Of a stretch of DNA of 64,000 nucleotides, positions 43,635 through 61,136 are shown one piece after another (position 1 is the first letter of the stretch; each line of letters begins with the position of its first letter). The position numbers and the translations under genes were made by a program. The DNA lies in contig OZ252098.1 in assembly GCA_965248355.1 (NCBI GenBank), positions 3,488,001-3,552,000 on the forward strand, read 5' to 3'. Origin of the DNA: Candidatus Latescibacterota bacterium. Lineage in GTDB: Bacteria; Latescibacterota; UBA2968; UBA8231. The notes under the pieces are model-generated. The model was not told where the DNA came from, did not search any database, and saw nothing but the letters and a program-made list of their open reading frames with translations.

Positions 43635-45185
43635 CTACAGCACCTTGCTGATCAGGCGCAACTCGAGGCCCTCGAAGCCCAACACCTCGTAGCAGCTGCC
43701 CCCGGTGCAGGCCAGCCCCGTCCTCCGCCGGCCCGCAAAGGCGTCCAGCGTGTGGGCCTCGCGGAACCTCCAGCTGGCGCCGAGAGCCCCCCAGTACGTC
43801 GCCCCCGACTCCGAGGCCCCGGCCTCCAGGGGGTCGTTGGACCTCTGCAGCTGCAGCGACCACGTCCACGCCGGATAGCGGCTGACCTCCACGATGGCCA
43901 GCAGGTTCTCGTGGGGGAACTCACTCCGGCCGAAGCGCCGGTCCACGTCCTGCAACTGCAGGTCGGCGCTGACGGCGTGGCGCCCGCCGGCGGACCACTC
44001 CCAGCGCGTGCCGGCGGTCAGGCGCCGCTCGTTCTCGAGGATGCGGTTGCGCGTATAGTCGAGGAACAGCTGTCCGTGGAGGACCTCGCCCACCGGGGAA
44101 TCCAATTGCAGGAAGTACTCCCGCAGCGACTTCTCCTCGCCGGGGCGCGAACCCCGGCGGGTGGCCAGGTTCCAGGCGGCGATCAGCCCGACCTGGCGGG
44201 GCAGGGCCCAGGTGAGCTCGGCCTGGACCCCGGTCTCGTCGTCGGCCAGCAGGGCGTGGGTCTCCCGGTTGAGCAGGAAGGCCTCGTGCTCCCGGATCAG
44301 GGTGGGCGGGTTGTTGATGCTCGCAAAGGCGAAGTCGTGGTAGTCCTTCCGTTCCAGGCTCAGCCCCCAGTCCCCGCCCGTCAGGGTGGCGGCCAGGTAG
44401 AGGGCCCGCGGGCGCTTGCTGTCCAGGGAGAACCAGCGGCCCGGGGCGGGATCGAGCTGGGCGTACTCGCCGTAGAGATCGCCGTACCAGCCACCCAGTC
44501 CGAGCCCTTCCAGGAGCGACCCGAAACGGAACTCCCCATGGGTGGTGGCGGCCAGCTCCTCGCGCCCGTCGAAGGAGAACTCCATCAGCGCCGCCCCGAT
44601 CTCGATGTCGCGGCTCAGGCGGGCGCCGACGGCCCCGCCGGAAACGCGGCCCCGGCGCCGTTCCAGACCCTTCAGCCCGGGGGCCAGCTCGCTGTTCACG
44701 GGGGTGCCGCGCAGCCACAGCACGTCCACCTTCCCCCGCCGGGCGCGCACCTCCACGCCATCAAGGTCGCGCACGATCTGGTAGCGGCGGCGGGCGACGC
44801 GGTCCTCGGTGACGACGCCCGGAAGCTCGAAGGCGTGCAGGAGGAGTCCGCGGCCCACCAGGGTGTAGAAGTGTCCGGCCGTCGCCTCGAGGCCGCCGTG
44901 CCGGTAGGAGAGGGATCGCTGCGCGAGGTGAGCGTAGTCCCGGCCGTCTCCGCTGGAGCGGAAGGCCTCGCTTCGGGCGCTGGCCAGGAATCCCGAGGAC
45001 TCGAAACCGAGGTTCACCTGCTGGTACACGGCCCGCAGATCGGCCGGCTCCGCGTCGGGAAGGTTGCCGAGCTGGTATTCGTGGTGGGCCGTGAGCCGCA
45101 CCTGGCCGTGGAGGGGGCCGGCCGCCAGCAGGGCGGCCGCCAACAGGGCGAGGAGCCCAGGGCTGGCGCGACAAGGAAGGGTCAT
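43635..45185 (-). CDS. DUF6029-like outer-membrane protein
   Basis: Signal peptide, GHFYTLVGRGLLL, NNPPTLIREH and C-terminal GLACTGGSCYEVLGFEG. Confidence 0.72.
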   Translation of the reverse strand: MTLPCRASPGLLALLAAALLAAGPLHGQVRLTAHHEYQLGNLPDAEPADLRAVYQQVNLGFESSGFLASARSEAFRSSGDGRDYAHLAQRSLSYRHGGLEATAGHFYTLVGRGLLLHAFELPGVVTEDRVARRRYQIVRDLDGVEVRARRGKVDVLWLRGTPVNSELAPGLKGLERRRGRVSGGAVGARLSRDIEIGAALMEFSFDGREELAATTHGEFRFGSLLEGLGLGGWYGDLYGEYAQLDPAPGRWFSLDSKRPRALYLAATLTGGDWGLSLERKDYHDFAFASINNPPTLIREHEAFLLNRETHALLADDETGVQAELTWALPRQVGLIAAWNLATRRGSRPGEEKSLREYFLQLDSPVGEVLHGQLFLDYTRNRILENERRLTAGTRWEWSAGGRHAVSADLQLQDVDRRFGRSEFPHENLLAIVEVSRYPAWTWSLQLQRSNDPLEAGASESGATYWGALGASWRFREAHTLDAFAGRRRTGLACTGGSCYEVLGFEGLELRLISKVL

Positions 45186-45267
45186 CGATCTCTCATCCGC
45201 GGACTCCGTCCCTCCCAGGGTACGCCTGCCAGCCGCCCGGACTCAAATCGCCCACCCCGGGTTCTCC

Positions 45268-46974
45268 TCAGGTCCGCGTCCCTTCCATGAGAATCCGCGC
45301 CACCTCCGGCCTGGTGAACTCCATGGGCGGGACCTGTCCCTTGGCCAGCATGTCGCGCACCTGTGTGCCGCTCAGATTCACGCGTTCCTCCGCGCCGTGC
45401 GGGCAGGTCTTCATGGAGGCCATGCCCTCGCAGCGCTTGCAGAAGAAGGAATGATCGAAGAACAGCGGGGTGATGCCCAGGTCGGCCGGGGGCAGGCTCC
45501 GCAGCAGGTCCTGCGCCTCATAGGTTCCGTAGTAGGACCCGACACCGGCGTGATCCCGTCCGACGATGAAGTGCGTGCAGCCGTAGTTCTTGCGGACGAG
45601 GGCGTGGAACACGGCCTCGCGCGGTCCCGCGTAGCGCATCGCCGCAGGCAGGACCGACAGATGCACACGGTCGGACGGGTAGTAGCCCTCCAGGAGGGCC
45701 CCATAGCAGCGCATCCGGATGTCGGCGGGGATGTCGTCCGGCTTGGTCTCTCCCACAAGGGGGTGCAACAGCAGCCCGTCGACGATCTCCAGGGCCGCCT
45801 TCTGGATGTACTCATGGGCGCGGTGGACGGGATTGCGGGTCTGAAACCCGACGATCGTCCGCCAGCCTCGCTCGGCGAAAGCGGCGCGCGTCTCGGCCGG
45901 GTCCTGCCGGTGGGACAGCAGAGCCGCCTCGAGGTCCTCGCGCTCGATGGCGGTGACCGCTCCGCCGATCAGCGCGTCATGCTGCCGGTAGACGGAGGCC
46001 ACGCCGGGGTGCGCTTCCTCCTGGGTGCCGAAGACGCTCTGCGCCTCGACCCTCTTGTCGTACGGATAGACCTCGTCAACCGTGATGACGCCGACGAGGC
46101 GGCCGGCGGGGTCGTGCAGGGCGGCTTCGTCGCCCCTTTCGAGTCCCGAGGCCGCTTCCCAGGGCGCGGACAAGGTGATCGGCAGGCTCCACAAGGTGCC
46201 GTTCGCGAGCCGCATCTCGCGCACCGTGCGCTCATAGTCGCCCCGGCTCATGAAGCCGGCCAGCGGGCTCATCGCCCCGACGGCGATGAGGTCGAGGTCA
46301 GCGGACTCGCGGGGAGAAAGCCCGAGGCGGGGCAGGGCCGAGGCCCGGGCGCGAATCTCCTGCGCCTCCTCCGGCGAGGCCAGTCGGTGGATGAGAGCGC
46401 CCCCGTGGGGCGCGATGGCCGTCATGGTGGCCGTGCCCTGTGGCGCGAATCCCCTCTCCTTCAGCGCGGACAGGACCTTGCCGAGGCTCTCCTCGATGGT
46501 CTCCTCCTCCGTGTTGACCAGGACCTCAGGGCTTGGCGGCGCCTCATACGGGTCCGAGACACCGGTGAAATTGGGAATCTCGCCCTTGAGCGCCTTCTCA
46601 TACAGGCCCTTCACGTCGCGCCGCACCAGCTCATCGAGCGAGGCGTGGACATGAACCTCGATGAAGCGGCCGATCTCCCGCCGCACCTCGTCGCGCACTT
46701 CGCGGTACGGCGAGATGGCCGAGACGATGCTGACCACGCCGTTGCGCGTGAGGAGGTTGCTGACGAATCCGATGCGCCGGATGTTGGTGTCGCGATCCTC
46801 CTTGCTGAAGCCGAGTCCCTTGCTGAGGTTCGTGCGGACCACGTCGCCGTCGAGCAGCTCGCAGTTGATACCCCGCTCCCCGAGGACCGCGAGCAACCGC
46901 TCCGCGATAGTGCTCTTGCCCGCGCCCGAAAGGCCGGTAAACCAGACCGTCACTCCCTGCGGATCTGTCGTCAC
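45268..46974 (-). CDS. sat: Fused adenylyl-sulfate kinase (CysC, N-terminal) and sulfate adenylyltransferase (Sat, C-terminal)
   Basis: [12 protein letters not shown]...[11 protein letters not shown] followed without a stop by PHGG...[11 protein letters not shown]...GRDHAG. Confidence 0.92.
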
Positions 46975-47004
46975 CTTGTTTCCTCCCTTGTCCGGGTTCG
47001 TGTT

Positions 47005-47772
47005 CTATGGTGTGGCGATGCCGGCGCCGTTTCCGGGCGGGATCGCAGTCCTCGAGATGTGGATGCCGCACTCCACCTTGTCCCCGAAATCGGACCAGCG
47101 GCCGGCTCTGCGGTCCTCGCCGGGCCGGACGGCGCGGGTGCAGTGGGTGCAGCCGATGCTGGGATACCCGCGGTCGTGCAGGTCGTTGTAGGGCACGTCG
47201 TTCTCGCGAATGCAATCCCAGATGTCCTCCTCCGTCCAAGTCGCCAGGGGGTTGATCTTGACGAGGTTGAACTTGATGTCCCATGCGACGATGGCGACAT
47301 CCTTGCGCCTGGTGCCCTGATCACGGCGCAAGCCGGCCATCCAGGCGTGCTGCCCGGCGAGGGCCTCCTCGCTGGGCCCGACCTTGCGGATCTCGCAGCA
47401 GAGATCGGGGTCGACCTTCCAGAGTTCCGGGCCGTGCCGTGCCGCCTGTCGCTCGACGGAAACGTCCGCCTTGAAGGCCATGGGACGGATTCCGTAGCGG
47501 CGCGCGGCCCGGTCCTTGAGGGCGTGTGTCTCCGGGAAGAGAAAGCCCGTATCGACGTAGAAGACGGAGACGGCGGGATTGATCTCCATGGCCATGTCGA
47601 GCAGGACCATGCCGGAGACACCGCCAAAGCTGCAGGCGAGCGTGATGTCCGGGAAGAAGGTCTCCAGGGCCCAGCGCACGATCTCCCGCGGGTGGGCGTC
47701 CTCCAGCTCGGCTCTGACCTGTCCAAGCCTCTCCTCGGTCCATTCCGTCCTCAGCGCTCCAATGTCCGCCAT
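47005..47772 (-). CDS. cysH: APS/PAPS reductase, Fe-S type
   Basis: SFG, DTG.LF.ET, CCEIRK, GYPSIGCTHCT, RAGRW and ECGIH; ATG 47772 with RBS. Confidence 0.92.
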   Translation of the reverse strand: MADIGALRTEWTEERLGQVRAELEDAHPREIVRWALETFFPDITLACSFGGVSGMVLLDMAMEINPAVSVFYVDTGFLFPETHALKDRAARRYGIRPMAFKADVSVERQAARHGPELWKVDPDLCCEIRKVGPSEEALAGQHAWMAGLRRDQGTRRKDVAIVAWDIKFNLVKINPLATWTEEDIWDCIRENDVPYNDLHDRGYPSIGCTHCTRAVRPGEDRRAGRWSDFGDKVECGIHISRTAIPPGNGAGIATP

Positions 47773-47803
47773 GTCTTCCGCTCTCCCTCCGTATCTGGCT
47801 GGC

Positions 47804-47843
47804 AAGAAAAAACCCGCCCCCCTTGGCTGTCGGGGGGCGGGTT
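47804..47843 (-). terminator. Intrinsic terminator (attenuator) upstream of cysH
   Basis: AACCCGCCCCCC-GACAGCCAA-GGGGGGCGGGTT followed by TTTTCTT. Confidence 0.85.
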
Positions 47844-47900
47844 CGTGCGCTTCTTCCTGGTTGATCAGGCGTGCCGCGCCGCTGTGTCAGTGAGGCCGGC

Positions 47901-48020
47901 TTACGTCGCTCGTCCGGCCTCCCGCCCCTGGATGGGCGTACAACAACACGAGCAGGTCACCGCGGCGCGGGGCGCCAGGGCAATCGCTGAGCAGTCAGGT
48001 ATGTGGAATTGCGCGTTCAT
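47901..48020 (-). CDS. Cys-rich leader peptide (39 aa)
   Basis: MNAQFHIPDCSAIALAPRAAVTCSCCCTPIQGREAGRAT with codons TGC TCG TGT TGT TGT. Confidence 0.75.
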   Translation of the reverse strand: MNAQFHIPDCSAIALAPRAAVTCSCCCTPIQGREAGRAT

Positions 48021-48043
48021 CGTCTCACGATCCGCTTCAACGC

Positions 48044-48071
48044 AAAATAGGCGACCGGCCTATGCTGTCAA
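48044..48071 (-). promoter_or_regulatory. Sigma70-like promoter of the cys leader
   Basis: TTGACA-16 nt-TATTTT. Confidence 0.6.
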
Positions 48072-48252
48072 TGCGTCGACGCTGGCCGCGCCCTCACCGC
48101 CCAGCTCGCTGCCGAAGAGGGCCTGCCTTGAGCAACCGCCTGCTGCGCCAGGCGCGCCGAATCCTCCTGCCAGGTGCCCTCGCTCCAACGACGGCCAGCC
48201 TGCACTGGTGCGCGCCCCCTGAATCCCTCCGGCAAGGCAGCATGACCCTGTC

Positions 48253-49383
48253 ATGTTTGCCCTGATCTTCCTGGCCCTGCTGGGCTCCGTCCATGCCTAT
48301 TCGGGCTGGCGGCTCATCCCCCATCTTCCTCCCCCGGCTCACTTCGGTGCCGCATCGGTGTTGGTGCTCCTCCTGTTGCTGCCCCTGTTGCTCTTCCGCC
48401 TGCGGTCCCGTCCACATCTGGCCTGGCTCACGGATCCCCTTGCCTGGGTGGCCTATCTGGGCATGGGTCTCTTCACCGTCTGCTCGACTCTGCTGGTCCT
48501 GCGCGACGTGGGAGCCCTGCTCTGGGGCCTGGTCCATCCTGTCGGCGCGGGGCTCGACGCCCGCCTCGACCTGGTCACCTTTGTCCTGGCCCTGGTGGTA
48601 ACGGGCTATGGCTGTTACCAGGCCCGACGCACGCCGGTGGTCCGCCGGGTCGAGATCCCTATTGCGGATCTCCCGCCCGCATTGGTGGGGCTGCGCATCG
48701 TGCAGATCAGCGATCTCCACGTGGGCCCCACCATCAAGGCCCCTTTTGTGGAGCGCGTTGTCACCCGCGTCAACGAACTGCGGCCCGACCTGATCGCCTT
48801 CACCGGCGATCTCGCCGACGGCGCCGTCGAACGACTCGCCCCTCATACGGCCCCCCTGGCCCAACTCACCGCTCCCCTCGGGATCTATTTCTGTACCGGC
48901 AACCACGAATACTACTCGGGCGTGGAGAGCTGGACCGAACAGGCCCGCCGACTCGGATTCGATGTCCTGATCAACGAAGCACGCCACATCGACTGCGGGG
49001 ACGGGCGCATCGCCTTGGCCGGCGCCACCGACTTCAGCGCCGGCGAGCTGGTCCCCGGCCACGCTTCCGATCCGGCCAAGGCCCTTGCCGGGAGCGACGG
49101 CGCCCACGTGCGAATCCTGCTCGCCCACCAGCCGCGCAGCATAGAGGCGGCCGCCACCGCCGGTTGCCACCTGCAACTGTCGGGGCACACCCACGGCGGC
49201 CAGTTCGTGCCGTGGAAGTACACCATCCTTCTGCAACAGCCCTATATCGCGGGACTGCACAAGGTTCGCGGCACCTGGATCTACGTCCACCGGGGCACCG
49301 GCTACTGGGGGCCCCCGCTGCGGCTCGGCGCCCCTTCCGAAATCGCGCTCCTCACCCTGAGCCGGGCGCCGCCGACCGGTTAA
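48253..49383 (+). CDS. Membrane metallophosphoesterase (YkuE/YaeI-like)
   Basis: N-terminal TM helices, SDLH, TGDL.D, GNHE and GHTHGGQ. Confidence 0.9.
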   Translation: MFALIFLALLGSVHAYSGWRLIPHLPPPAHFGAASVLVLLLLLPLLLFRLRSRPHLAWLTDPLAWVAYLGMGLFTVCSTLLVLRDVGALLWGLVHPVGAGLDARLDLVTFVLALVVTGYGCYQARRTPVVRRVEIPIADLPPALVGLRIVQISDLHVGPTIKAPFVERVVTRVNELRPDLIAFTGDLADGAVERLAPHTAPLAQLTAPLGIYFCTGNHEYYSGVESWTEQARRLGFDVLINEARHIDCGDGRIALAGATDFSAGELVPGHASDPAKALAGSDGAHVRILLAHQPRSIEAAATAGCHLQLSGHTHGGQFVPWKYTILLQQPYIAGLHKVRGTWIYVHRGTGYWGPPLRLGAPSEIALLTLSRAPPTG

Positions 49384-50126
49384 CCGCCAGCTGTCGCCGC
49401 CCGCTCTCCCGTCCACTGGCGCAGGGCGGCGTCCAGCGCCACCCGGTGCACGGCCGCCCGTTTCTCCAGCGGCCACTCCGTCGGGGTTTCGAAGATGCAG
49501 GCGCGGGAAGCGTGTCCGTGCAGGACATAGGGGGCCAGCCCTACCTGTCCCCAGGACGGGGAGATCTCGTAGACACCCGGTGATAGGGGCCTGCTGTCCT
49601 CGCCGCTGTCCGGGTCGATGGAAGCCCGCTCCGCCACCTCGGCAATGACGGCGGGTCCCACCGCGGAGCCCTGCCGCAGGCCCTCGTACATGTAGAAGCC
49701 ATTGGCCTCCCAGTCTTCATGGCAATCGACAAAGGCGTCCACCCGACACCCCTCCAGCACCTTCTTGACCAGTTGCACCTCGGGCACGTCGCTGCCCTCG
49801 AAGGAGCGGTTGATATCCACTCCGGCCCCGTTGTCGCGGGTGCCGCGCACGTAGCCCACGGGATTGACGCAGGGCATGGCCGTGAACTCCACCTGCCCGA
49901 GCCACGGTTCCATGTCCTCTTCGACGAAGCGCAGGACCGCCTCCACCCCGGCGGGCTCGTCGCCGTGGACCCCGGCGGTCAGGAAGACCCGCAACCTCCG
50001 GGGCCGGCCCGCACGGATGCGGAGAATCGGGTGGCCCTCGACCGTCCCGATCGTCTCCACGGTCCGGCCCGGGCTGGCCAGAGCTTCCACCCGGCGCACG
50101 ACCTGATCGTAGGACCGCTCTGTCAT
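49380..50126 (-). CDS. M14/succinylglutamate desuccinylase-like metallopeptidase
   Basis: GVHGDE, DINRSF, DCHED and FETP. Confidence 0.82.
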   Translation of the reverse strand: MTERSYDQVVRRVEALASPGRTVETIGTVEGHPILRIRAGRPRRLRVFLTAGVHGDEPAGVEAVLRFVEEDMEPWLGQVEFTAMPCVNPVGYVRGTRDNGAGVDINRSFEGSDVPEVQLVKKVLEGCRVDAFVDCHEDWEANGFYMYEGLRQGSAVGPAVIAEVAERASIDPDSGEDSRPLSPGVYEISPSWGQVGLAPYVLHGHASRACIFETPTEWPLEKRAAVHRVALDAALRQWTGERAATAGG

Positions 50127-50139
50127 TTGTGGGGCCGTG

Positions 50140-51534
50140 CTACCCCGCCACCTCGGCCCGGTTGAAGGCCCACAGGGCGAAGAAGAAGGCCAGGGCCGTC
50201 TCCAGCACCAGGACGAGGATGGGCGCCACGCCCGCGGCCACGCTCTCCTCCAGCGGCAGGGGGACTTGCTGGAAGCGCGGGATGTGGCGCGGGTCCAGCT
50301 CTTCCCGGGACATGTAGTCGCCGAGGAACAACACGTGAGGTGAATCCGCGTCGGCCGCGTCGCGGGCCCTCAGGAAGTCGCGCAACGTCTCCCGGTAACC
50401 CCATCCCTGGCGGGCGAAGCTGCGGAAGCGCTGGATGCCGTTGCGCAGCAGGGCCTCAAGGGAATACTGGAAGGCGTAGCCCGGGGAGAGCAGGTTCACC
50501 GTCCGGGCGACCTCGAACTGCCGGATCTCCTGGTCCAGCGCCTCCCAGCGAATCCGGTCCTTCCCTTTCTCCATCTCCTGGATGCGTCGTGCATAACGCT
50601 TCTCCAGGGCGTAGTCGTCGGCCCGGGCCAGCTCCAGGGGGCGGGGCTCGATCCCTTCCCGCTGCAGCGCCGCCCGCACCTCGTTCTCGTGGGTGTCGAT
50701 CTCTTCCCAGATGCCGTCCGGGGATTTCACCGCCGTCACCGCCGCCAGGTATGACGTCTGCGGAATGACGACCATGAGCACGGTCCAGGCGGTGACGAGC
50801 AGCACCAGGGAGGAGGCCGAGCTGCGGGCCAGGGCCGAGACCCCGGCGGCCAGCAGCAGGAAGAGGGCGATGAAGATCGCCGTTCCCAGCAGGAAGAAGG
50901 CGTAGCTCGACCAGATCGCCCCGTCCGGTTCCAGCACTCCGCCGAGGACCAGGATGAGCAGGCTGAGCAGGCTGCCCACCGCGGTGGCGGCCAGCAGGGT
51001 GACCAGGTGGGCGCCGACCTTGGCCAGCAGGAAGCGGCCCCGGGACAGGGAGTTGGTCAGCACCAGCAGCAGGGTGCCGTTCTCCCGCTCTCCGCAGACG
51101 GCGTTGTAGGCCAGGACGACACACAGGAAGGAGAGCACGTAGCGCACGATGACGGCCCAGTCCACCACCTCGAAGCGGCGCATCCACCGGTTGGTGGTGC
51201 GCGAGCTGGCGAACCCGGGAATGGCGCCCGATGCCGGGTTGACGTACATGGCGTACCGGAACCAGTCGGAGCCGGCCTCGGCCATGAACTCGGTGCCCAC
51301 CTCGGCGCCCCGGATCTTGTAGCTGGTCGCGGCGGCGTCCCCCGTGGTCTCCACCCGCCCGTAGCGCTCCTCGTTGAGCTTGGTGATGCGCGCCACTTCC
51401 TCGGAGAGGTTACCCGTCTTCATGGTGTAGATGACGCCATTCGCCCCGAAGAACATCAGCAGGATGATCAGGCTGATCTGGAAGCGCAGGGACAGGAGAT
51501 TGTCGCGCAGCTGGTGGAGGAAGATCGGTCCCAT
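50140..51534 (-). CDS. ABC-2 type transporter permease
   Basis: AYNAVCGERENGTL...LSRGRFLLAK. Confidence 0.82.
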   Translation of the reverse strand: MGPIFLHQLRDNLLSLRFQISLIILLMFFGANGVIYTMKTGNLSEEVARITKLNEERYGRVETTGDAAATSYKIRGAEVGTEFMAEAGSDWFRYAMYVNPASGAIPGFASSRTTNRWMRRFEVVDWAVIVRYVLSFLCVVLAYNAVCGERENGTLLLVLTNSLSRGRFLLAKVGAHLVTLLAATAVGSLLSLLILVLGGVLEPDGAIWSSYAFFLLGTAIFIALFLLLAAGVSALARSSASSLVLLVTAWTVLMVVIPQTSYLAAVTAVKSPDGIWEEIDTHENEVRAALQREGIEPRPLELARADDYALEKRYARRIQEMEKGKDRIRWEALDQEIRQFEVARTVNLLSPGYAFQYSLEALLRNGIQRFRSFARQGWGYRETLRDFLRARDAADADSPHVLFLGDYMSREELDPRHIPRFQQVPLPLEESVAAGVAPILVLVLETALAFFFALWAFNRAEVAG

Positions 51535-51550
51535 GAGAGCAGCTCCGGAG

Positions 51551-53113
51551 TCAGCGCGGATCGTAGCGCAGGAAACGCGAGATGGTGATCAGCACGGCCA
51601 GGCCGAAGCTCAGGACCAGGATGACGAGGCCCGGCATCATCACGCCGAAGGAGGCGGCCAGCGATCGCTGCCAGCGGCCTCCGAAGCGGGGCATGTCCGT
51701 CAGGTCCAGCCCCACCGCGCCCGCGGACCGGCCCTGTTCCCGGGCCTCCGCCCAGGCCATGCGCTGTCTCATGAAGGGCGCGTCGGCGGCCAGCATCGCC
51801 TCGGTCACCGACGCCGGATCGGCGATCATGGGCTCCTGGCCTTCCGGGTCGTCGCTGAACCAGCGGCGGCTGGAAAAGGCCTCCTTGCCGCGCAGGTACT
51901 CGATGTAGGTTCGGCGGTAGTCCCGGCCCTCCCCCACCAGGTGGAAGCGGTCGTCCAGGGTGGTGCGCGCCAGCAGGTAGGAGAGCACCTGGTAGTTGGT
52001 GAAGGGCGAGAGGATCGACCACTCGTCGACCAGATGGCTCATCCGCGCCAGGGGCCCCCAGTTGGCCCAGTGGTATCGGTACCGGCGGTCGGCCAGCTCC
52101 AGGCGCTTGTCCATGGCGAAGGCGTTCCTCCGCTGCATCCACTCGTATCCGCGGGGATGTGCGTAGCGCAGCACGCCGCGGCGCTCAAGCCCCTTGAGGT
52201 AGGCTTCGGGCGGCGAAGGGTGCCTCTCCTCCCACTCCTCCATCGTCTTCTCGAACTCGTTCCAGAGTTGCCGGTTCTGTTCGCGGAACTCGTCGGCCGG
52301 CGGGGCCTTCACGCCGTAGCGGCTCAGCGACGGCAGGACGTTGATGTATCCCACGCCGCCCACCAGCCAGGCGAAGAGGCAGATGATCAGGGCCGTGTCC
52401 GTGCCGCGCACCAGGGAGGAGACCATCAGGCTCAGGGCGAAGACCTGGCCGAGGAACAGGCAGGAGAGGAGGAAGAAGACGCCCAGGCGCACCCAGTCGT
52501 CGCCGGCCAGATGAATGTCGGGGTGGCCCACCAGGATGAGCAGGGAAAGGACGAAGGCCAGGGCGAAGGGGATCCACAGGGAGATCATGCCGCTCAGCAG
52601 CTTGGCCAGGACCACGTGGCCCCGCGGTACCGGGTTGACGAGCAGCTGCTTGAGCGTGCCCCTCTCCCGCTCCCCGCAGATGCCGTCGAAGCCCAGGACC
52701 ACGGCCAGGAAGCTGAGCAGCACGGCCACCACGGTGGCGAAGTCGATCTGCACCAGGATCCTCATGAAGTTGCTGTCGAAGCTCTCCGCCAGCTCCCAGG
52801 CCGACACGGGCACCTGGTCCAGGCGGATCCAGATCGACTGTCCCGCCGTGCTCACCACCCCCCGGCAGAGGATGGCCAGGGGCTGGGGCGGCACCACGAC
52901 GCGGGGGCCGACCTGGGAATAGACGGCCACCTCCTCCAGGTTCTCCTCGATCTCCCGTATCTCCCTCTCGTAGACATCCACGTTGCGTGCATAGTCCACG
53001 GTGCCGATGAAGGTCGTCAGCACCGACAGGACCACTGTGAAGGTCACGGCCACGCCCAGGCGCAAGGTGAGCAGGTTGGTCAGCAGCTCCTTGCGTACGA
53101 GGGTCCAGATCAT
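51551..53113 (-). CDS. ABC-2 type transporter permease
   Basis: GFDGICGERERGTLKQLLVNPVPR...LAK. Confidence 0.82.
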   Translation of the reverse strand: MIWTLVRKELLTNLLTLRLGVAVTFTVVLSVLTTFIGTVDYARNVDVYEREIREIEENLEEVAVYSQVGPRVVVPPQPLAILCRGVVSTAGQSIWIRLDQVPVSAWELAESFDSNFMRILVQIDFATVVAVLLSFLAVVLGFDGICGERERGTLKQLLVNPVPRGHVVLAKLLSGMISLWIPFALAFVLSLLILVGHPDIHLAGDDWVRLGVFFLLSCLFLGQVFALSLMVSSLVRGTDTALIICLFAWLVGGVGYINVLPSLSRYGVKAPPADEFREQNRQLWNEFEKTMEEWEERHPSPPEAYLKGLERRGVLRYAHPRGYEWMQRRNAFAMDKRLELADRRYRYHWANWGPLARMSHLVDEWSILSPFTNYQVLSYLLARTTLDDRFHLVGEGRDYRRTYIEYLRGKEAFSSRRWFSDDPEGQEPMIADPASVTEAMLAADAPFMRQRMAWAEAREQGRSAGAVGLDLTDMPRFGGRWQRSLAASFGVMMPGLVILVLSFGLAVLITISRFLRYDPR

Positions 53114-53196
53114 GCGGCTCTTTCCAGATGGCAACGGTGCCGCCGCCCCAGGTTCCGTTGCGCCGGGAAACCCTGATCCCGGCGATCAAAGGGTCG

Positions 53197-61060: not shown

Positions 61061-61136
61061 TGGTGGAGCTGAGGGGAATCGAACCCCTGACCTCCTGAAT
61101 GCCATTCAGGCGCTCTCCCAACTGAGCTACAGCCCC
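61061..61136 (-). tRNA. tRNA-Ala(GGC)
   Basis: GGGGCTGTAGCTCAGTTGGGAGAGCGCCTGAATGGCATTCAGGAGGTCAGGGGTTCGATTCCCCTCAGCTCCACCA: 76 nt, G3:U70 pair, encoded CCA. Confidence 0.97.

Follow-up and report, generated by a model that had tools for sequence, protein, structure and literature searches.

Directly upstream of the sulfate-assimilation operon cysH-cysC/sat, in the 64,000-nucleotide (nt) stretch of contig OZ252098.1 analyzed here (hereafter, the window, with positions counted from its first letter), lies an element that is probably a ribosome-mediated, trp-type transcription attenuator keyed to cysteine and controlling that operon. In the trp operon of Escherichia coli and the his operon of Salmonella, such a leader combines an open reading frame (ORF) rich in codons for the end product, a four-segment logic of alternative pairings (1:2, 2:3, and 3:4), and a terminator with a U-tract. 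The cysH-cysC/sat operon makes the reduced-sulfur precursor of cysteine. We observed the parts of such a device in the window, their conservation in related genomes, a coding signature in the leader, and the alternative pairings. An earlier note on this DNA, made from its sequence alone, had recognized a trp/his-type architecture; the layout recurs in 19/19 related genomes, and those features of the architecture that can be judged from sequence were found, save covariation in the antiterminator. If this reading is right, the element would be a complete, conserved, and classical cysteine-keyed transcription attenuator at a cysteine-pathway operon. It is read on the minus strand, from 48071 to 47770, and its parts and the genes that follow are these:

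48071-48044, minus strand: promoter identified by motif scan, with TTGACA (48071-48066), a 16-nt spacer, and TATTTT (48049-48044)
48020-47901, minus strand: leader ORF of 39 codons plus TAA, encoding the peptide MNAQFHIPDCSAIALAPRAAVTCSCCCTPIQGREAGRAT
47954-47940, minus strand: regulatory codons Cys-Ser-Cys-Cys-Cys (TGC-TCG-TGT-TGT-TGT)
47928-47921, minus strand: 5′ strand of the antiterminator (segment 2), GGGGCGGG, complementary at 8/8 positions to 47841-47834 (inverted-repeat search)
47843-47804, minus strand: intrinsic terminator with arms AACCCGCCCCCC (47843-47832) and GGGGGGCGGGTT (47822-47811) and a T-tract at 47812-47807
47790-47783, minus strand: Shine-Dalgarno sequence of cysH, GGAGGGAG, with an anti-Shine-Dalgarno duplex of -10.0 kcal/mol
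47005-47772, minus strand: cysH, phosphoadenylyl-sulfate (PAPS/APS) reductase of 255 amino acids (PF01507, E = 5e-47)
45268-46974, minus strand: cysC-sat fusion of 568 amino acids, comprising an adenylyl-sulfate (APS) kinase, a PUA-like domain, and an ATP sulfurylase (PF01583, PF14306, PF01747)

The components that the earlier note had listed in the window are present where it placed them. The promoter is the sole sigma-70-like match between 43000 and 52000 (shuffle mean, 0.4); its -10 box ends 23 nt before the ATG of the leader, and its position predicts a 5′ untranslated region (UTR) of roughly 17 nt. The five Cys codons of the leader comprise those of the TGC-TCG-TGT-TGT-TGT run (leader positions 23 and 25-27, with Ser between) and an additional TGC at codon 10 (47993-47991). 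At the Cys background of 1.13% in 45 likely window genes, at least five Cys among 39 residues would occur by chance with a probability of ~8e-5. That TGT is disfavored in this DNA (G+C content of 68%) proved correct as well: the same 45 genes use 20 TGT against 173 TGC among 193 Cys codons, and TGT makes up three of the five in the leader. The arms of the terminator, 12 nt each and 100% complementary, enclose a 9-nt loop and are followed by TTTTTT (inverted-repeat search); a scan for terminators, limited to loops of 3 to 8 nt, missed this hairpin for that reason only. The ribosome binding site of cysH comes next, and the T-tract is separated from the cysH ATG at 47772 by about 30 to 35 nt. With one promoter-like site, a strong terminator, and ~30 nt to the gene, cysH would therefore be reached by read-through only.

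A CysH-based scan with one genome per species yielded 24 loci. Nineteen of these (L001-L019), labelled Dehalococcoidia or Chloroflexota metagenome-assembled genomes, encode a CysH 74 to 81% identical to that of the window; together with the window they form the set of 20 sequences counted below. The others (L020-L024, from Acidimicrobiales, archaea, and Acetobacteraceae; CysH identity, 25 to 45%) were kept out of the alignments. No comparable leader was found upstream of cysH in L020-L024, and the two upstream Cys-containing short ORFs of L024 lack related features. In 19/19 relatives the whole element stands upstream of cysH, and cysC/sat directly follows cysH in all 19. The 330 nt 5′ of cysH can be aligned end to end across the relatives and run, in order, from TTGACA-17/18-TATAGT through an ATG ~24 nt past the -10 box, an ORF of 34 to 39 codons, a hairpin whose loop holds the stop codon, a GCGC...GCGC domain, and a terminator (ACCGCCCC-loop-GGGGCGGT-TTTTCTT) to a variable spacer and the cysH Shine-Dalgarno sequence. 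For the promoter, which was read from the alignment, a motif scan agrees with 11/12 matches in the 3/19 relatives scanned. A core profile run with nhmmer over the window and the 24 loci recovered one copy each in L001-L019 and in the window (E = 1e-32 to 2e-55), and no further copies in the 64-kb window or the 24 loci. Nucleotide identity among the relatives (n = 19) is 95% for the block that extends from the Ala-Ala-Val codons to the stem of the stop-codon hairpin (hairpin P, below), compared with 58% for the spacer after the terminator and 70% for third codon positions of cysH (the CysH protein averages 90%), which indicates strong constraint on the element.

Some features set the window apart from its relatives. 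The spacer from T-tract to cysH is ~35 nt long in the window (47772-47812) and ~85 nt long and highly variable in the relatives, and the leader of the window is the most divergent, its peptide being 49 to 59% identical to those of the relatives. A hidden Markov model (HMM) search with the leader peptide against 1.84 billion representative proteins returned two relatives, P0121 and P0123, the latter another leader variant, ending in ..TCSCMTVPGREALR; a 5,820-amino-acid protein from the same search was disregarded for want of an aligned stretch. Short ORFs are seldom called by gene finders, so that this result of two proteins says little on distribution.

The substitution pattern of the leader ORF points to translation. 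From the aligned ATG, the frame is open in 20/20 sequences, and the other frames contain stops in 20/20 (+1) and 18/20 (+2); leaders differ in length by 3 or 6 nt, that is, by multiples of three. Across codons 8 to 14, third positions vary while the amino acids His/Tyr-Ser-Pro-Ser-Val-x-Ala are kept, with synonymous usage of AGC (13) and AGT (6), of CCA (12) and CCT (7), and of TCA (13), TCT (5), and TCC (2), and with four codons each for Val and Ala in codons 9 to 14. From codon 19 onward synonymous sites are fixed too, as expected where coding and RNA pairing overlap. The alignment of the leader peptides has 13 invariant and 9 nearly invariant columns of 39. The earlier note had staked its reading on a leader that is conserved and translated, and the ORF is indeed intact in 20/20 sequences with a coding-type pattern of substitution; judged by this signature, the leader would be the short translated ORF that characterizes attenuators of the trp/his type.

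Within this frame, TGC-TCG-TGT (Cys-Ser-Cys) is invariant in 20/20 sequences. Two Cys are found in most leaders (17/20) and three in L010 and L019; the window alone has five. The variable position after Cys-Ser-Cys is occupied by Tyr, Cys, Cys-Cys, or Cys-Tyr or is absent, and the added Cys codons, confined to the window, L010, and L019, are always TGT and always adjoin Cys-Ser-Cys. The check suggested in the earlier note, for Cys-run leaders in relatives, shows a conserved leader, but the five-Cys run belongs to the window only, and the conserved sensor is Cys-Ser-Cys. On this alignment, the run of the window appears to be a local elaboration of a conserved two-Cys sensor. In E. coli trpL, two regulatory codons suffice, the same number as in the conserved sensor, and the leader would likewise hold codons for the amino acid of the pathway that it regulates.

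Around these codons, RNAalifold and pair counts yield hairpins a, c, and P, the stem that closes domain E, and the terminator hairpin, a fold richer than that first described. The switch parts that the earlier note listed stand, but it overlooked a sequestering hairpin, a long-range helix of the Cys codons, and two spacer hairpins. The additional features in the window are as follows:

47976-47964, minus strand: hairpin a, GGCGC-CCC-GCGCC, inside the ORF and 5′ of the Cys codons
47938-47934, minus strand: segment 1, CGCCC, pairing with GGGCG of segment 2 as hairpin c
47921-47892, minus strand: hairpin P, GAGGCCGG...CCGGCCTC, whose loop contains the stop codon of the leader, TAA (47903-47901)
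~47887-47870 (approximate ends), minus strand: "lock" strand, ACACAGCGGCGCGGC, complementary to the Cys-codon block
47879-47847, minus strand: domain E, in which a GCGC...GCGC stem encloses a hairpin that varies (here CCTG/CAGG)

In the terminated fold, 99.2% of alignment cells are paired, compared with 37 to 52% when partners are slid, and three pairs show compensatory changes, a number equalled by 0/500 shuffles. The window leader including the terminator folds at -109.4 kcal/mol (z = -3.06 against shuffles). The terminator itself has an energy of -27.5 kcal/mol in the window and -16.3 to -19.2 kcal/mol in the relatives, where it consists of an 8-bp stem and a T-tract; two compensatory pairs occur across the alignment. 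Segment 2 reads GGGGCGG in 18/20 sequences and GGGGCGA in 2/20, and GGGGCGG(G) is complementary to the 5′ arm of the terminator over 6 to 8 bp in 20/20. Hairpin c, (U/C)GCCC:GGGCG, hides this antiterminator strand: 6/6 sequence versions fold, at -6.7 to -10.0 kcal/mol, and 99% of cells are paired. Segment 1 lies within ~12 nt of the last Cys codon and would thus be inside a ribosome stalled there. Hairpin P folds in 11/11 distinct versions, with one compensatory pair (CG in 16, UA in 2, UG in 2), and in none of the sequences does the leader stop codon fall outside its loop region.

Past hairpin P comes a strand complementary to the Cys-codon block, (C)CUGCUCGUGU; it differs among the 20 sequences, and every version retains complementarity. 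The duplex has an energy of -11.4 to -17.9 kcal/mol, a modest excess over shuffles (z = -1.0 to -3.0; 0 to 49 of 300 shuffles equal it), and the block is paired with the lock strand in 19/20 full-length minimum-energy folds. Domain E folds alike in 16/16 distinct versions, with an invariant closing stem and inner stems that covary (CCUG:CAGG, UCUG:CAGA, UCCUG:CAGGA, and GACU:AGUC); in the modeled switch it may be a spacer that brings segments 2 and 3 together. Hairpin a is paired in 100% of cells (alignment columns 111-115/119-123), with four pairs invariant, one varying one-sidedly, and a loop of NNN. It has no part in the choice between terminator and antiterminator, and it might serve as an RNA polymerase pause signal that synchronizes ribosome and polymerase.

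The 20 leaders were folded with a ribosome represented by unpaired positions -18 to +12 relative to the first base of the codon in the A site. Full transcripts without a ribosome form the terminator in 20/20 cases. When the transcript is cut before the 3′ arm of the terminator and the ribosome is placed at the last Cys codon, GGGGCGG pairs with the 5′ arm in 20/20; with the ribosome at the first Cys codon the antiterminator forms in 16/20, and with the ribosome at the stop codon it forms in 1/20, the window itself. The stop codon lies 12 nt past GGGGCGG in 17/20 sequences (18 nt in the window, L011, and L019), and at 12 nt a terminating ribosome would therefore cover part of GGGGCGG. In these models the stall and stop-codon positions would discriminate well, which fits the trp model. 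The proposal of the earlier note that a stalled ribosome frees the antiterminator is thus supported in 20/20 constrained folds with the last Cys codon masked, while its dependence on cysteine is something that we infer.

On this basis, the attenuator may operate as follows. Transcription would start from the single promoter, and the leader would be translated close behind the polymerase. When Cys-tRNA is plentiful, the ribosome would run on to the stop codon within the hairpin P loop; the ribosome would then cover GGGGCGG, or GGGGCGG would refold into the small hairpin with GCCC, the Cys-codon block could pair with the downstream ACAC... strand, and the terminator would form, leaving cysH untranscribed. 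When Cys-tRNA is scarce, the ribosome would stall on TGC-TCG-TGT(-TGT-TGT), its footprint extending over the Cys block and the GCCC strand. GGGGCGG would then be free to pair with the CCGCCCC 5′ arm as this emerges; with hairpins P and E enclosed in a three-way junction, the resulting antiterminator would block the terminator, allowing the polymerase to read into cysH. In this scheme we infer that the ribosome stalls at Cys codons, that it is coupled to the polymerase, and that the device responds to cysteine.

Several observations weigh against the attenuator so described. At least two Cys in 35 residues have a chance probability of ~0.06, and most relatives carry two; the invariance of the Cys codons could, moreover, be explained by the RNA helix that contains them. 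The peptide is conserved well past the Cys codons, for which plain codon-sensing has no need. The Shine-Dalgarno sequence of the leader is weak or absent: computed against the anti-Shine-Dalgarno motif, its duplex has an energy of -5.4 kcal/mol in the window and +0.2 to -3.9 kcal/mol in the relatives, with -6.4 to -10.0 kcal/mol for that of cysH in the window and relatives. Without its terminator, the leader is no more stable than shuffles (z = -0.97; 33/200 shuffles as stable). The antiterminator helix is only 7 to 8 bp long with a loop of ~80 nt, and it is 97% paired without covariation (four pairs are invariant and three depart by unpaired cells only), since both strands are almost invariant; conservation alone would argue for this helix. 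The cut transcript forms the antiterminator without any ribosome in 14/20 cases, by 0.2 to 6 kcal/mol only, and with a ribosome at codon 8 in 10/20. Because the antiterminator thus arises without stalling in equilibrium folds, a kinetic argument must account for termination when the ribosome does not stall, namely, that hairpin c and the Cys-block helix would form first. Finally, in the window, GGGGCGGG would be left uncovered by a ribosome at the stop codon, which is 18 nt beyond rather than 12.

The conserved peptide raises the question of whether the translated leader controls the terminator by another or an additional signal, either nascent-peptide arrest (..HSPS..ALARRAAVTCSCYMPVPGREA) or a peptide acting in trans. 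TnaC and SpeFL are nascent peptides of this kind, arresting the ribosome upon a small molecule or condition. In the leaders, Ser9, Pro10, Ser11, and Ala14 are kept through synonymous changes that codon-sensing would not require, and a Pro-rich M-P-V-P-G stretch follows the Cys codons. However, the C-terminal part is fixed at synonymous sites too, so that RNA pairing explains its conservation; the 19 relatives are close (judging from the mean CysH identity given above), so that some conservation of the peptide is expected; the N-terminal motif is altered in the window (HIPD compared with HSPS); and the Cys codons are placed exactly where a stalled ribosome would free GGGGCGG. We therefore regard a peptide-borne signal as unlikely. 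In L001-L019, RNAalifold also pairs CCC(A/U)UC of the Ser-Pro-Ser codons with GAGGGG of the cysH Shine-Dalgarno sequence (columns 93-98/339-344); the first pair is CG in 13 and UG in 6 of these 19 relatives, and the window lacks the pairing. This pairing could be a second level of control that masks translation of cysH; equally well, it could have arisen by chance or simply follow from conservation of the peptide. A device of two levels, transcription and translation, in which the peptide (..HSPS..ALARRAAVTCSCYMPVPGREA), selected for its amino acids, does more than count Cys codons and acts as nascent-chain sensor or in trans and the Ser-Pro-Ser pairing masks the Shine-Dalgarno sequence in the relatives, is likewise a doubtful prospect.

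Conservation at the nucleotide level invites the opposite suggestion, an RNA-only switch (a sulfur-metabolite riboswitch or a protein-binding leader) in which the ORF is incidental or merely helps to unfold the RNA. Such a switch would account for the very high nucleotide conservation from codon 19 to the P stem, synonymous sites included, for a multihelix fold with some covariation, and for the weak Shine-Dalgarno sequence of the leader. It would not account for an ORF that is open in every sequence with its other frames closed, for insertions and deletions in threes, for third-position variation at codons 8 to 14, or for a stop codon always in the loop of hairpin P; moreover, the conserved fold consists of small hairpins and spacers and has no match in Rfam. 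At gathering score, only a tRNA passes in the whole window, and at E values up to 10 the region 47600-48300 gives five chance matches, all far below their gathering scores and none a riboswitch (among them RybB, the best, at 19.8 bits compared with 40, on the terminator, and Thr_leader, at 14 compared with 55). A SAM or T-box riboswitch, which the earlier note had named as the finding that would overturn its reading, was rejected, as neither appeared in either search. We consider a purely RNA-based switch quite improbable.

The leader could also be a free-standing gene for a small protein, e.g., a Cys-x-Cys peptide, with cysH expressed by constitutive leak-through or from an unrecognised promoter. 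The peptide is conserved, and gene callers predicted P0121 and P0123 as proteins in public data. Nevertheless, a promoter would not fit into the ~30 nt that separate T-tract and cysH ATG in the window, the 3/19 relatives scanned showed no promoter-like site from terminator to cysH, the element is always directly upstream of cysH (19/19), and GGGGCGG, as a duplicate of the 3′ arm of the terminator, would be purposeless. An independent small-protein gene is thus very improbable.

Read as a cysteine attenuator, the element resembles the trp and his leaders in its promoter-proximal ORF with codons of the pathway, its 1:2, 2:3, and 3:4 logic, and a stop codon near segment 2. It differs from them in its amino acid (cysteine), in its operon (sulfate assimilation), and in the phylum of the relatives (Chloroflexota). 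Instead of a simple loop, the 2:3 helix would enclose a three-way junction with two conserved hairpins, the Cys codons form an extra long-range helix with a downstream strand, a Ser codon separates the two core Cys codons, and the leader Shine-Dalgarno sequence is weak. Sulfate assimilation is usually ascribed to protein regulators (CysB, CymR) or to S-box and T-box RNAs.

Cysteine leaders of other kinds are described in print. The earlier note placed them mainly in Actinobacteria, which proved too narrow: uORFC-8-2, a predicted attenuator upstream of cysS in Rhodobacterales, has two Cys codons in a short upstream ORF (uORF) (Brewer et al. 2021, PMC8632094). Compared by description, uORFC-8-2 and our element share two conserved Cys codons in a short uORF, the placement of these codons in a stem, and a terminal U-run that would fit an intrinsic terminator. 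They differ in that uORFC-8-2 targets cysS, occurs in Alphaproteobacteria, and has tandem Cys codons (14-15) and two stems. Our element lies upstream of cysH, has Ser-separated Cys codons, and contains more helices, and on that description it is not a member of uORFC-8-2.

In mycobacteria, leaderless ORFs with polycysteine tracts regulate translation, in that they unmask a Shine-Dalgarno sequence (Canestrari et al. 2020, bioRxiv 10.1101/834739). That preprint restates the principle of ribosome-mediated attenuation and describes uORF-mediated attenuation for cysteine as undescribed. The two systems are alike in that stalling at Cys codons would report the supply of Cys-tRNA and activate genes of cysteine metabolism and in that the Cys codons pair with a downstream strand. 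In the mycobacterial system, however, the Cys tract has as its pairing partner the Shine-Dalgarno sequence of the downstream gene, and the leaderless mRNAs involve no terminator; in our element the partner of the Cys block is ~47887-47870, upstream of a strong terminator, and a 5′ UTR is predicted. Seliverstov et al. 2005 (PMC1262725) reported short ORFs upstream of cysteine genes, with Cys codons near the stop codon; that study gives no conserved terminator hairpins, suggests Rho-dependent termination, and calls the mechanism unknown. Compared with the leaders as presented there, both the terminator and the antiterminator of our element are explicit and conserved.

The sole terminator-based Cys leader that we found in print is uORFC-8-2, at cysS, which is only predicted (PMC8632094). 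The literature searched reports no Cys leader at cysH or in Chloroflexi, a result that leaves absence unproven because most papers in subscription journals fell outside the search. The element appears to work like a trp attenuator and would be the first explicit terminator-based cysteine attenuator at a sulfur-assimilation operon, as well as one of the rare regulatory elements to be defined in uncultured Chloroflexota. Almost no gene regulation has been characterized in Chloroflexota, and few members of the clade of the relatives have been cultured. The element would open sulfur regulation to concrete testing in these bacteria, for several of which metagenome-assembled genomes are all that is known, and it is compact enough for study in vitro.

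With respect to the genes around the element, homologues of cysH carry the name phosphoadenylyl-sulfate reductase. The upstream neighbor is a metallophosphoesterase gene (48253-49383, plus strand), divergent from the leader. The element thus lies in a divergent intergenic region of 480 nt, so that no upstream gene has its end at the terminator. A same-strand upstream ORF (48094-49476) was rejected as the neighboring gene for lack of a Pfam match, the real neighbor being the divergent metallophosphoesterase. Antisense to the leader and to cysH-cysC/sat runs a 1,052-codon frame (45064-48222, plus strand), which we regard as a shadow ORF of GC-rich DNA and not a gene because its GC content is 0.83 at first and 0.68 at third codon positions, opposite to that of real window genes. 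Downstream of cysC/sat, the window encodes a DUF6029 protein of 516 amino acids (43635-45185, minus strand; E = 1e-15) that is absent from this position in 19/19 relatives; the metallophosphoesterase and DUF6029 neighbors are not common to the relatives. Past the metallophosphoesterase, the region 49380-53134 (minus strand) holds unrelated genes, encoding a protein of the M14/AstE-like carboxypeptidase family and two long ABC-2-type permeases. The sole RNA gene detected in the window is a tRNA-Ala (GGC) at 61061-61136 on the minus strand.

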